A stretch of DNA of 64,000 nucleotides from the NCBI GenBank assembly GCA_020137815.1, contig CM035359.1, positions 1,364,001-1,428,000 of the forward strand. The letters are read 5' to 3'. Numbering within the stretch: position 1 is the first letter of the stretch; each line of letters opens with the position of its first letter. Below, one piece after another: positions 43,301 to 49,300 of the stretch. The DNA is from Hormiphora californensis. Taxonomy: Eukaryota > Animalia > Ctenophora. The translations under genes and the position numbers were made by a program. A model generated the notes under the pieces. It made no database searches. It was not told where the DNA came from and saw only the letters and a list, made by a program, of their open reading frames with translations.

Positions 43301-46300
43301 CTATCATATCTTTGCCATGCTACGCAGTCTGTCTGTTCGGCTCACACCGGGGTCCGGGTCAGCTGACAGACAAGGAACATGTCAATTATATCTCTTATGA
43401 CACTTGTTAAGTAAGATGACACATGAAGGCTATTTACCCTACAAATTCCCGAAAATTCAAGTTTCTATCTTCAAAAATGTGGTTTCAGGATTTCAGGAAA
43501 ATTAAAACTAAAACTTACCATAGCAATATTTGAGAGAGTGGTTGCGATCTCTGGGTGCCACAATCCATACTGTTTCTCCTTGGTTACCAGAACACTCTGG
43601 TACAGCACCTTACTCTTTTCGTGCTCTCCCAGAGCGGCGCTCACTGCCGCCAGGTTACACAAAGTAGAGCCAAACTCGTGACGGGGAACATCGTGTCGCT
43701 CCTAGGGGATGATATCGGGATGTAAAGTGAAATGTAGTTTCTACCAAACATAGAACGGTTCCTAAATGCAATCACAATTTACAAAAAACTCTCACGAGCC
43801 TCGGCCTCAAATCATGTCTGTTATTATACCTGTATTCTCATAACTCGGTTCAGTTGACTGTGTGCCTGGTTTGGTTCTCCCATCTTGTTCCTTAACATGG
43901 CCACTCGGCTCAGAGTTTCACAAATCTCCAGCCCATTTGATCCATGAATACTCTCCCTAATACTCAATGATCGTTCCAAAAGGGTGTTTGCGTAGGTTAG
44001 GTTGCCTAAATAATGAGGGTACACAATGTTAAGAAAATCTCACCAAAATGATCTCATTCTTAAAATTACTCCGAATAAAACCAAAGAAAGTCGGAACTAC
44101 TGAAATATTGCCAAACCACGTACGCACCCCTTCTAAATCACGTACGCACCCATTCCAAATCACGCACATACCCATTCCAAATCAGGTACGCACCCCTTCC
44201 AAATCATGATTTGCGTGCACGCACATACCCCTTCCAAATCACGCACATACCCATTCCAAATCAGGTACGCACCCCTGTCAAATCACGCACATACCCATTC
44301 CAAATCAGTTACGCACCCATTCCAAATCACGTACATACATCTTCCAAATCAGTAGTATAGTGTGCACAGTTGGGACCCCTTTTTCGCCCTAACTGGGGCA
44401 CCATTTTGTATGAGCATGACACGTGACTTCTGATTACCAAAATTATGCGGCGCTGGCAAGAGTTGTTCGCTAGAATATCGGGAGCGCCGGCAAGGGCCTT
44501 GGAATTTATTTTGGCGCTGACAAGGGCCCACATTCGCGATTGGGATTTCTGTATGATGTCAATTTTTGTTTGGGATTTCTGTGTGATCTCACCCCTATCA
44601 CATTACACTCCTGCACAATACATATTCCTTTGTCTCTTTTTTTTTCTCGTGCCAGGTGTATCAGCTGATACAAATAATAAATATGTTCCTCTAATGTTCT
44701 TTTATTATTCTTACCGTTCTTTTGGTATTCCAGTGACTTTTCATTAAAAAGGAACGAGCCGGGAACAGTGAAAATTACAAAAGAACAGCATCGGAATGTT
44801 TTTTCGTTAGAAAGGAAAAGTGGGAAAATACAAAAGAACAGTGGATATTAGAACGGAACAACAGCGGAACGATGGCGGAACAGTAAAATGTTGCAAAATG
44901 TTTCAAAAACGAAAACATGTAGTAGATACACTTAAACTAGGGAATGTATTTTTCAAATTAAGAGACTGGTTTTCTGGAGAAAAATAAATGAATAATTAAA
45001 ATTCCATCAGTTATATCAAAATTGAATCTTCATTATATCAAATCTAATGCAGATCACAGCTTCGACTTTCCATGCTGTAGATGGGCGTGAACTCCTTGCT
45101 ATTTCTAGTAGATCTTCCCGTTCAATATTTTCTTTTACTTTTTTAACGTCTTCTCGCCCAGAAATTAATTGAGCAGTCTCAAAAACCATTGTGTTATTAG
45201 AGGGGTGATAAAATTTAACTTCACCAGTAAGTTTGTTTGTCATAACAAAGCCGAATGCGACATTCAGTTTTATATCATTCTGATAGTTTTCCAAGACTTT
45301 ATCTAGTTTACCAAAAATTCCATCAGTGGGTGACAGTGGAAAATGATAAATATCTTTTAGTTTGCCTTTTGTAGTACGCTGACGAATAGTTGACCAATTT
45401 TTCCGGTATAACTCCCAAAACTTGACGGGCACAGTATCTAGAAACGCGTCCATGATTCTTATGGTAGCAATTATGGTAACACCGGTTTATATAGCCAAAG
45501 ATATGTTCTACTTCAATTATCGACGGGTCATAGCACTGTTATTCCCAGCGTTCTTTTGGTATTCCAGTGACTTTTCATGAGAAAGGAACGAGACGGGAAC
45601 AGTGAAAACTACAAAAGAACAGCAACGGAATGTTTTTTCGTTAGAAAGGAAAAGTGGGAAAATACAAAAGAACAGTGGATATTAGAACGGAACAACAGCG
45701 GAACGACAGCGGAACAGAAATATTGTAAACTGTTGCAAAATGTTTGATTCACTGGAACAATAAAACCTACTTTGTTTTTGATTTGTAAAACAAATAAAAA
45801 GACCTTTTTTCAAACAAAAAAAAAGAAATATAATTAACTATACATTTAAACTTTCATTTTCTAAATCTCTTAAAAGCAACAGCGTCTTTTCAACAACTTG
45901 GAAAATATTTGCAAACTCTTTAGAATATTTTAAAAATAATTTTTTGATATCTTCAACGCTCTTTTTGTCAACTAATTTAATCAATTTTCGTTCTTTTTCA
46001 TTTAATCTCTTTCGCTGAAAAACAACAAGTGGAATTACACCATACTTTAGACCAGTACACAACGTTTTAATAGCTTGTAAAAGTTGGTTACTACGTGAAA
46101 CCTTGACAAATTTCTTTGAAGCAAACAATCGACTGAGTTCTAGAAAGTCAGCAATATTTTTGGAGTTAATTATTGAATCGGAAAACTCGTTAAGGCCAGA
46201 GGGGGGGGGGGTCGACGGGTTTTTTGGGGTGTTTTTTGAGGTATACGTTATATGAAAGCGCTGGGCAAGGCGAATCGATTAGAACTGATGCCATCGATGT

Positions 46301-49300
46301 TGCACACACCGTTTGGCAAAAATTTGGGGGTTAACATTTGGCCTATAATGGATGTTAACCCCTATAAATCAGGATTGGTGGGGTCTAGAACATCCATCAT
46401 TGTACCAAAGGCTTCGTCTTGTCTTGATACAACTTCCTGAAAAGTTTTATGTCGTTACTCCAACTACTTCTTGATTTTTTGGGGGTTTACAAAATATGCG
46501 GAAAAAGCCCTTTTTGCCTCTAATTTTGCTCTTTTTTGGGACATCCTGCCTCACTTCCTGAGATAACGGCTAGGACTCAGACCTTGCCGTTTGGCATAGT
46601 TGTTCTGGGGACCGTGTTCTTCAAATTTGGTGTAGCGATTTTTGATTAAGGCCCCCGTTCAAAAATTATAGGGGTTAACATTTGTTTTGTCCATGAAAAT
46701 TTTATGTAAACCCCTATAAATTTTGAACGGGGGCCTTAATCAAAAATCGCTACACCAAATTTGAAGAACACGGTCTCTAGAACAACTATGCCAAACGGCA
46801 AGGTCTGAGTCCTAGCCGTTATCTCAGGAAGTGAGGCAGGATGTCCCAAAAAAGAGCAAAATTAGAGGCAAAAAGGGCTTTTTCCGCATATTTTGTAAAC
46901 CCCCAAAAAATCAAGAAGTAGTTGGAGTAACGACATAAAACTTTTCAGGAAGTTGTATCAAGACAAGACGAAGCCTTTGGTACAATGATGGATGTTCTAG
47001 ACCCCATCAATCCTGATTTATAGGGGTTAACATCCATTATAGGCCAAATGTTAACCCCCAAATTTTTGCCAAACGGTGTGTGCAACATCGATGGCATCAG
47101 TTCTAATCGATTCGCCTTGCCCAGCGCTTTCATATAACGTATACCTCAAAAAACACCCCAAAAAACCCGTCGACCCCCCCCTCTGGCCTTAAAGGTACTG
47201 TCCTTAAAATTTGTTATAAACTCATCGAGTTGCTTTTCAAATAACCGAATGCGACTCAAATGTTGTTTTGATTCCGTCAGCTTTGTTTTGTACAAACGTT
47301 CAAACTTGCGAGCGTGCTGATCTCGCACATGATACAATTCCTTGTAATTTAGTTCAGGCTTTTTCACAACTTTAGTAAGTGTTGGTGAAGGGTTTTCCGA
47401 ATCTTTATCGCTGCTATCTGCAGAGGTGTCATCTATTGGATAATCCTCATCTATCTGTAGTTCTTTGGTATCCATACCTTCATTAATCGTAGGCTTTTTG
47501 TGATAAAGGTCTTTATGTTCAAGGAGTTGATAAATGAAGGGGAACGATTGGTCACACAAGTCACAAGCTACCATTTGTAAAGAAATGAAGATAGTTGTCC
47601 CTTATATACCCATGGCATGACATCGAAAGAAACTAGTTACTGCAGTTAGGACATTTATTTTCATAGGTTTCCGGAAACAGCTTGTTCGTAATATTATCAA
47701 ACATTTCTGGGTTCTGGTTTAGCATTTCACGAATTTCAATTAATGAGTTTGATTCCTTAATGGCGTCCACAAGAAGTTTCTCGCGATCTGTTAGATCAGC
47801 TTTGCTGATATCAGCGTCAATAAGATCGTGCTTGAAAGCAAAGCAGTGTAGCAAGCATTGGTATGTATTTTCTCGGTCCGAAGATTCGCTATCAGATTGA
47901 GATATATCTGAGTCAGACTCTGGATCTGAAATATCACTTAAGCCCATTTTCTTAGACGACTCGTGACGCGTATTAGATCTCGGCATGACTAGAACTGAAT
48001 TGAACGCAATAAGCAATCTCTTTTATAGTTCCAAACTAGCTATTTTACTGTTCTGGTGTTGTTCCGGTGTTGTTCCAGTGAATCACAATATGTTCCGTTG
48101 TTGTTCTTTTGTAATTTTCACTGTTTCCATTTCGTTCCTTTTTAATGAAAAGTCACCGGAACGCCAAAAGAACACTACGAATGATAAAGTAACGACAAAA
48201 TCATTTTTAGAACACCTGTGTAAAAACACGTTTCCTAGTTTAAGTGTATCTACTACATGTTTTCGTTTTTGAAACATTTTGCAACATTTTACTGTTCCGC
48301 CGTCGTTCCGCTGTTGTTCCGTTCTAATTTCCACTGTTCTTTTGTATTTTCCAACTTTTCTTATCTAACAAAAAATCGTTCCGATGCTGTTCTTTTGTAA
48401 TTTTCACTGTTCCCGGCTCGTTCCTTTTTAATGAAAAGTCACTGGAATACCAAAAGAACGGTAAGAATAATAAAAGAACATTAGAGGAACATATTTATTA
48501 TTTGTATCAGCTGATACACCTGGCACGAGAAAAAAAAAGAGACAAAGGAATATGTATTGTGCAGGAGTGTAATGTGATAGGGGTGAGATCACACAGAAAT
48601 CCCAAACAAAAATTGACATCATACAGAAATCCCAATCGCGAATGTGGGCCCTTGTCAGCGCCAAAATAAATTCCAAGGCCCTTGCCGGCGCTCCCGATAT
48701 TCTAGCGAACAACTCTTGCCAGCGCCGCATAATTTTGGTAATCAGAAGTCACGTGTCATGCTCATACAAAATGGTGCCCCAGTTAGGGCGAAAAAGGGGT
48801 CCCAACTGTGCACACTATACTACTCAAATCACGCACATACCCATTCCAAATCAGGTACAAACCCCCACGTACCAATGTTTGTGTGGACCTGAGCCAATTC
48901 GTTGAGGAGATTGCTCTCCTTGATCAGGAATTCCTCTCCATCGAGCCGCTCAATGATCTGGATACACTGCTCCAGCATACCAGCCGTCTCCCTCTTCTTT
49001 CCGAGACGAGCTAGATGGAAAATGGGGAAGTGTTGAACAAAATAATTAAATTCCACTATTGTCTAAAGATTCAAAGATTCAATAATGATGATCTATAATA
49101 GTTCATGACAAAAACACACTTACTCAGAACGGTAGCTCGATCCCTGAGAATATCAAAGAGATCAAGATCTGTGGGGTTGAAGCACTGGAAGGCAATGTTT
49201 TGGGCAGTCTCAAGCGCCTCCTCCGCCTTGACAAGCTCGCCCAGTAGCAGGAGAGAGTCTGCGTAGAACTTGAGAGCTCGAACAGCCACCCTGTTTTTGA

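Follow-up and report, generated by a model that had tools for sequence, protein, structure and literature searches.

We describe here a small transposable element of the Polinton/Maverick type in the ctenophore Hormiphora californensis, which appears to carry a primer gene for the replication of its own ends. The element, called a mini-Polinton below, occupies positions 44351-48824 of a stretch of 64,000 nucleotides (the window) taken from contig CM035359.1 of assembly GCA_020137815.1 (positions 1,364,001 to 1,428,000, forward strand). Polinton polymerases have a terminal-protein (primer) domain at their N-terminus, and one of the three genes of the element, gene 3, encodes, judging from its sequence and its predicted structure, a homologue of this domain as a protein on its own. 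We think it on balance probable that the mini-Polinton is a non-autonomous element supplying its own primer for its own ends and taking the polymerase, the integrase and perhaps the capsid from a full-size helper.

The element shows all the end features of Polintons/Mavericks, i.e. a target-site duplication (TSD) of 6 bp, (AGT)2//(ACT)2 ends and long terminal inverted repeats (TIRs). The published Maverick signature consists of a 6-bp TSD, ends of the type (AGT)2//(ACT)2 or (AG)3//(CT)3 and long TIRs (PMC8097293). The left TIR (44351..44953, plus strand) is 603 bp long and starts with (AGT)2, and the right one (48222..48824, minus strand) ends with (ACT)2; the pair has 11 mismatches over 603 bp, all within the inner 157 bp. 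The TSD, CAAATC, is found at 44345..44350 and 48825..48830, and among the lengths checked (3-11) the flanks are duplicated at length 6 only. The insertion cuts a host 22-bp tandem array (44111..48865), and since the register of this array resumes only if 6 bp are counted as duplicated, CAAATC is a true TSD and not a by-product of the array. A TPR-like host gene surrounds the site, which falls in one of its predicted introns (44006-48872, minus strand); the TPR_12 match of this gene, at E 0.004, does not reach the Pfam threshold. The near-identity of the TIRs supports a recent insertion, and the first 19 bp of the left TIR are likely to be the replication origin and the integrase site. The size of the element minus a nested palindrome is ~3.47 kb. 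These results bear out the initial annotation, which had reported the 6-bp TSD CAAATC, AGTAGT...ACTACT termini, near-identical TIRs of ~600 bp, a size of ~3.5 kb without a nested foldback and a recent insertion.

A module rich in GAACA/TGTTC lies within the inner TIR (44705..44908, plus strand), where the density of these motifs is ~30 per kb versus 2.6 per kb outside the element. It may be an enhancer or a protein-binding array. An internal copy of the module (45539..45740, plus strand), 92% to 44705-44908, is located directly upstream of the gene 3 promoter, and a partial copy of 96 bp (48093..48188) lies upstream of gene 1. Open reading frames (ORFs) of 100 aa within the TIRs, as well as those of 62 aa within the palindrome, were treated as chance.

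Gene 3 (45016..45453, minus strand) is intact and encodes a 145-aa homologue of the PRD1-like terminal protein, or D1 domain. Its database matches number 15, of which 13 are full-length (143-150 aa) with 46-91% identity. A profile built from gene 3 picks up 1346 proteins of the library at E<=1e-3, and the best 150 include many long ones; five of the 17 long matches scanned exceed the Pfam cut-off for DNA_pol_B_2, the organellar/viral polymerase B family. The surroundings of relatives were taken from 22 metagenome loci (L001-L022), and the polymerase ORF of one of them, L020, which is 1370 aa long, is matched by gene 3 over residues 87-221 (34%, E 3e-17). The predicted structure of gene 3 (pLDDT 91.6) has four strands and two helices in a topology like that of the little-finger/PAD domain. 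Its best viral structure matches are polymerase proteins of an adintovirus, a MELD-virus and a bidnavirus-like type. Against solved folds, the little-finger/PAD domains of Y-family polymerases take six of the top 11 rows, the best of them with a middling Z of 5.9 and a root-mean-square deviation of 3.0 over 88 aligned residues. Searched by sequence, the PDB gave weak TAF1 bromodomain rows alone (E>=0.0012), which were dropped. The D1 domain of Polinton polymerases has been described as a PRD1-like terminal protein related to the little-finger/PAD domain (bioRxiv 10.1101/2024.03.18.585575), in agreement with this assignment.

The same preprint (bioRxiv 10.1101/2024.03.18.585575) places the linking residue of PRD1-like terminal proteins, a Ser, Thr or Tyr, close to a Pro or Gly in the loop that leads into the last strand. 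A candidate linking loop is seen in the gene 3 model at residues 123-127, between the last helix and the last strand. Counting only the rows that have a residue at the given place, out of 57 short and 108 long ones, position 126 is Ser/Thr in 45/49 short and 98/102 long rows, and position 124 is Pro in 40/49 and 99/105, respectively. Thr126 is the candidate for the residue linked to DNA, with Ser125 as the alternative.

In sequence, gene 3 and its relatives also bear the mark of purifying selection. Three pairs of related free primers give dN/dS ratios of 0.13-0.20, and silent to replacing changes stand at 7:1, 9:2 and 2:1 in three close free-primer pairs. When gene 3 is compared with its counterpart in a second organism (organism B, see below) over codons 73-145, 12 of the 17 differences listed are silent and five replacing (p 1e-5). 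The suggestion that the element keeps a selected set of genes is thus upheld for gene 3 and its relatives; one pair of gene-2-like copies shows no clear constraint.

The three genes are intronless, lie on the minus strand and are each headed by their own TATA box, found at 45487..45493 for gene 3, 47602..47608 for gene 2 and 48021..48027 for gene 1 (all minus strand). Across the three genes, the ATG lies 41, 34 and 40 nt past the first base of the box. Three of the five minus-strand TATA boxes fall at gene starts, for which the rough chance is 6e-6, and 18/19 related genes checked at other loci have a TATA box at most 110 nt upstream. Three co-oriented ORFs with TATA boxes had been noted from the start, and this stands for the intact genes 1 and 3; gene 2 is split by the nested palindrome. 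Behind genes 2 and 3 on their coding strand (45016-45838, minus strand) there are T-rich tracts, and the first AATAAA comes only within the left TIR (44706).

Other core genes of Polintons were not detected. The four protein pieces of the element have no Pfam match above the cut-off, and none of seven integrase, ATPase, protease and capsid queries from L011, L015 and L019 matches the window at E<=0.05, the query taken for the major capsid being a fragment, assigned mainly by its position. The polymerase of L020 matches the window over residues 87-221, its terminal-protein region, alone, with its exonuclease and palm finding no match. Hence of eight core-gene queries the primer region is the sole one with a match in the window, and the three genes leave no space for further core genes. 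The initial annotation had stated that the element has no core machinery, which is correct for the polymerase core, integrase, ATPase, protease and capsid and needs amending because gene 3 corresponds to the terminal protein, one component of the replication module. Its classification as a non-autonomous Polinton derivative agrees with the Polinton-type ends and the absence of the catalytic core genes. Self-mobility of the mini-Polinton was considered and rejected, as the element is without a recombinase.

Gene 2 is interrupted in this copy by a nested palindromic element (46190..47192 including the TTAA sites), whose palindrome (46194-47188) is 995 bp long with GG..CC ends. TTAA flanks the palindrome on both sides, its ends are of the RR..YY type and its longest ORF is at most 62 aa. 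The sequence fits a non-autonomous Kolobok-like element, Koloboks being marked by TTAA duplication and RR..YY ends (PMC9587614). The break is peculiar to this copy, because contigs are continuous across the site in sequencing runs X2, X5, X8 and X13 and the C-terminal piece of gene 2 has eight matches in the database that are 218-263 aa long. The depth of the palindrome exceeds that of the mini-Polinton in both organisms in which the element was followed, and it is thus itself a very abundant family.

The N-terminal piece of gene 2 (47193..47574, minus strand; 127 aa) has a C2H2-like finger, which scores below the Pfam cut-off, followed by an acidic linker and a helical segment, and the C-terminal piece (45838..46188, minus strand; 116 aa) is basic and all-helical. 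The named homologues of gene 2 are from the comb jelly Pleurobrachia bachei. Gene 1 (47633..47986, minus strand; 117 aa) is intact, with an acidic N-terminal half, a short helical domain bearing a weak likeness to that of gene 2, and a C-terminal CxxC. The top viral fold match of the helical C-domain of gene 2 is the 109-aa adintovirus protein GasderminX (probability 0.96, TM 0.67, E 0.51), with the next row at 0.20. The profile of this domain scores 14 bits against a small protein encoded behind the ATPase in L015/L019 and 8.5 bits against gene 1, beating 300/300 shuffles in both cases, although a few shuffles equalled two of the four other test rows. Direct pairings of gene 2 with gene 1 and with the core protein were not significant, the alignments being shallow. 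The tail of the small protein in L015/L019 holds a Gly-Gly, presumably the protease site of a pX-like tail, which is absent at the matching place in gene 2. A helical-repeat fold for the C-terminal piece, with a best Z of 7.2 among solved folds, was not trusted. Small adintovirus proteins of this type belong to the virion module and have a pX-like tail (PMC8502044, section 3.2). We infer that genes 2 and 1 are likely to be non-catalytic derivatives of a small virion core protein, binding DNA or the packaging machinery, and from their sequences gene 1 may be a paralogue of gene 2.

The mini-Polinton is a repeated family, with its gene order kept in two organisms, and the possibility of a single copy, raised at the outset, does not hold. 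Summed contig depth, which is not a copy number and is read here as "repeated" and nothing more, is 766-3612 outside the nested part in run X2 of organism A (three runs from two studies), versus 6-8 on the flanks. The corresponding depths over the element are 5,900-52,000 in run X1 (flanks 190-510) and 520-57,000 in run X5 (flanks 370-510), with one bin of the latter at flank level. In organism B, one unbroken contig of 1456 nt begins at the end of gene 2, crosses gene 1 and reaches the right TIR, another of 629 nt carries gene 3, and a metagenome contig of 416 nt links gene 3 to gene 2 across the internal module; the gene order is that of the window element, at 92-96% identity. In run X13 the depth is 242 for gene 3 and 262 for gene 1. 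The largest contigs cover part of a copy, and none spans a whole one. Close homologues of genes 1, 2 and 3 are each assigned to a contig of 3253 bp, which we take for a single contig from the equal size alone. A primer-less variant with joints 44914>45736 and 44902>45787 was not accepted; each joint has direct repeats on its two sides, and an internal module of greater length would give the same picture. The EukProt gene model P0209 of Pleurobrachia bachei (1532 aa) chains three gene-1 and five gene-2 copies, and may reflect clustered same-orientation copies, element concatemers or an assembly artefact. No relatives of the element were found in viral contigs or in prokaryote genomes.

The metagenome loci show in which company the free primers occur; L001-L003 and L022 were too short or ambiguous to class. 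At nine loci (L008, L011, L014-L019 and L021) a free primer lies among core or core-cluster genes and has no gene-2-like neighbour; Pfam names the integrase, ATPase and protease in L015 and L011. The primer is fused to the polymerase in L020. At six others (L004, L006, L007, L009, L010 and L013) the primer is next to a C2H2-plus-helical relative of gene 2 (hhalign 91%, E 9e-7; E 4e-7 for the L010 copy), and L005 has a gene-1-like fragment upstream of the primer gene. An ACTACT end follows 390-615 bp past the primer gene in L004, L006, L007 and L010, much as in the window element (665 bp). L010 is the sole firm case of a Polinton end, because ACTACT alone is common; its end is identical to that of the window element over the terminal 19 bp, with primers that are 41% identical. 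In L016 (138-3268 and 6871-7341) a polymerase in pieces has its own D1 (E 3e-27) and the vOTU Cys and His, and there is a separate free primer as well. A tree of 72 rows places gene 3 in a set (support 98/94) with L012, L004, L006 and L013, while the core-cluster primers fall elsewhere; one 206-aa row inside this set is labelled fused by length alone. Free and fused primers form a single split in a tree of 40 rows, with a support of only 74/87.

Some further features of these loci were observed. L004 (663-2389) and L006 (782-2405) are related elements that have the same AT-rich repeat array but the finger gene oppositely oriented to the primer gene. A conserved row of three or four unnamed small genes separates the free primer from the integrase in L015 (2376-3392), L019 (1177-2674), L008, L017, L018 and L021. 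A sequence resembling a transfer RNA was spotted by eye at ~2100-2180 of L005, downstream of the free primer gene.

How might such an element be propagated? The primer region being the only part of the core genes with a match in the window, the element must be copied and integrated by functions supplied in trans. The fused D1 of the Polinton polymerase is reported to be released by the vOTU protease (bioRxiv 10.1101/2024.03.18.585575). As the polymerase is thought to cut off its single fused primer once synthesis has started, cores left without one would be able to restart if a free primer were present. We propose that the process would begin when a helper Polinton excises or replicates, and that genes 1 and 3, each preceded by a copy of the TIR module, are likely activated through it together with the helper. 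The mini-Polinton would make free primer, the predicted product of gene 3, and the polymerase cores of the helper, having shed their fused primer, would reload on it at the ends of the mini-Polinton. A satellite making its own primer would pull polymerase cores to its own ends. The helper integrase would finally insert the product, leaving the 6-bp TSD.

Several observations weigh against a helper-dependent element that brings its own primer. No helper sharing this TIR was matched in viral contigs (0 matches). For gene 3, the Z of 5.9 falls within the range of common arrangements, and a Foldseek search against the PDB gave nothing at E<=0.001. Gene 2 is only weakly tied to the core protein (E 0.51; hhalign probability 17%), the gene-2-like copies of L006 and L009, the one pair tested, differ by five silent and 15 replacing changes with no clear constraint, and the gene-2-like copy of L007 is in two pieces. 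The fused D1 of L016 sits on a very long branch, and the free primers may have replaced rather than supplemented the fused one. A primer of the same clade lies directly behind a polymerase ORF in L012, and the other ends of L004, L006, L007 and L010 are off their contigs, so that the cassette may be an arm of full elements.

The last two points favour the most serious alternative, which we regard as unlikely: that the mini-Polinton is an internal-deletion derivative, made of the joined arms of full Polintons carrying the primer and finger/helical genes, passive and amplified via its ends, with selection having acted in the full elements. The four-copy module could moreover mask a branch to the core region in short contigs. 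Such an origin would sit poorly with the lack of a remnant of any core gene between the TIRs and with a separate promoter for each gene. It is also opposed by the unbroken contig from gene 2 through gene 1 to the TIR, the similar depth of genes 3 and 1 in run X13, the second organism with the same order, and the nine full-type loci where a free primer among core genes is without a gene-2-like neighbour. A helper-dependent element with its own primer and a deletion derivative can nevertheless have a common origin.

It is highly improbable, in our assessment, that the element acts as a decoy or restriction element, its free primer and core-like proteins jamming the replication or packaging of the helper, as a defective-interfering element or a brake tolerated by the host. 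The helical domain of gene 2, resembling a core protein but missing the Gly-Gly-bearing tail, would suit such a role, as would the high abundance in host runs. However, the candidate linking residue and loop are retained, full-type Polintons contain free primers too, and near-identical TIRs still bound a recently inserted element. Least probable of all is one segment of a multipartite Polinton, with modules on separate TIR-bounded pieces and this one giving primer to the others, as the clean three-gene module and the terminal 19 bp common to elements with primers only 41% identical would allow, since no partner segment was seen and full-type loci have their own free or fused primer.

A helper-dependent element supplying its own primer thus remains our preferred reading. 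Its extension to a widespread class is decidedly doubtful: Polinton-ended minis of marine animals, encoding no more than a free terminal protein plus core-like accessories, might restart spent helper polymerases in a "bring-your-own-primer" manner and, in the extreme, be the primer segment of a split Polinton.

Other features were seen elsewhere in the window. Nested pieces of a non-long-terminal-repeat retrotransposon lie at 22508-30793, with reverse transcriptase ORFs (22508-23986 and 24598-26007), an RNase H ORF (26705-28033) and an ORF1-like frame (29405-30793). An intronless papain-family (cathepsin-like) protease in two frames (18495-19522, minus strand) is possibly a processed or broken copy. 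The region 11058-12514 has two copies of an unannotated domain of ~160 aa with no Pfam match, which we take to be typical of ctenophore proteins. An ORF of 529 aa (52738-54327, minus strand) has a 10-residue tandem repeat of Ser/Arg/Pro/Gln/Lys. We also observed a 13-bp array inside a very high-depth repeat (43013-43093) and a 218-bp tandem in two copies (31743-32227).

Non-autonomous Polintons, families of which are listed in Repbase, are already known, and so is a single full Polinton whose primer gene is separate. A polymerase-less Polinton with a terminal-protein gene was not found in the literature searched, a search outside which Repbase and preprint supplements (Fig. S6 maps of 2024.03.18.585575) fell, and the available parts of PMC3014272, bioRxiv 2025.02.07.637071 and 2024.01.15.575659 hold no such case. 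Animal Polintons/Mavericks (polintoviruses, adintoviruses; PMC8097293, PMC8502044) resemble the mini-Polinton in the 6-bp TSD, the (AGT)2/(ACT)2 ends, the long TIRs, the intronless genes and the terminal-protein family. The mini-Polinton differs from the full elements in its size, ~3.5 kb versus 15-20 kb, in being without polymerase core, integrase, ATPase, protease and capsid, and in having the primer as a separate gene. It shares with PRD1-like terminal proteins, including that of the hood-coral polinton with its separate terminal-protein gene (bioRxiv 10.1101/2024.03.18.585575), the D1 homology, a little-finger/PAD-like fold and a hydroxyl residue by a Pro before the last strand. The free terminal protein of the coral case belongs to a full element whose polymerase has lost its terminal protein, whereas the mini-Polinton has a free one without any polymerase, with Thr as the candidate residue. 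L016, unlike the coral element, retains a fused terminal protein alongside the free one. Judging from our data, animal Polintons seem to have free primer genes far more commonly than the single published coral case would imply, and such genes seem able to coexist with a fused primer, which bears on the origin of the separate adenovirus terminal protein. The start of Polinton replication has so far been predicted from structure only, and a small, well-folded free primer between its own origins would be the simplest natural test substrate.

The TIR-only Polinton insertions of C. elegans (bioRxiv 10.1101/2024.01.15.575659) depend likewise on a helper via shared ends; the mini-Polinton differs in having intact promoter-led genes, one of them a selected replication part. 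The small member of the yeast killer/helper plasmid pair (PMC13348850) is, like the mini-Polinton, a small linear element with inverted ends and a larger partner, and so are transpovirons, which rely on a larger partner too. These elements encode their own polymerase or polymerase-helicase, whereas the mini-Polinton encodes the primer alone and integrates. If it does depend on a helper in the way we propose, its parasitic strategy would be unlike that of ordinary non-autonomous transposons, which contribute their ends only, and unlike that of the polymerase-bearing killer plasmids and transpovirons.

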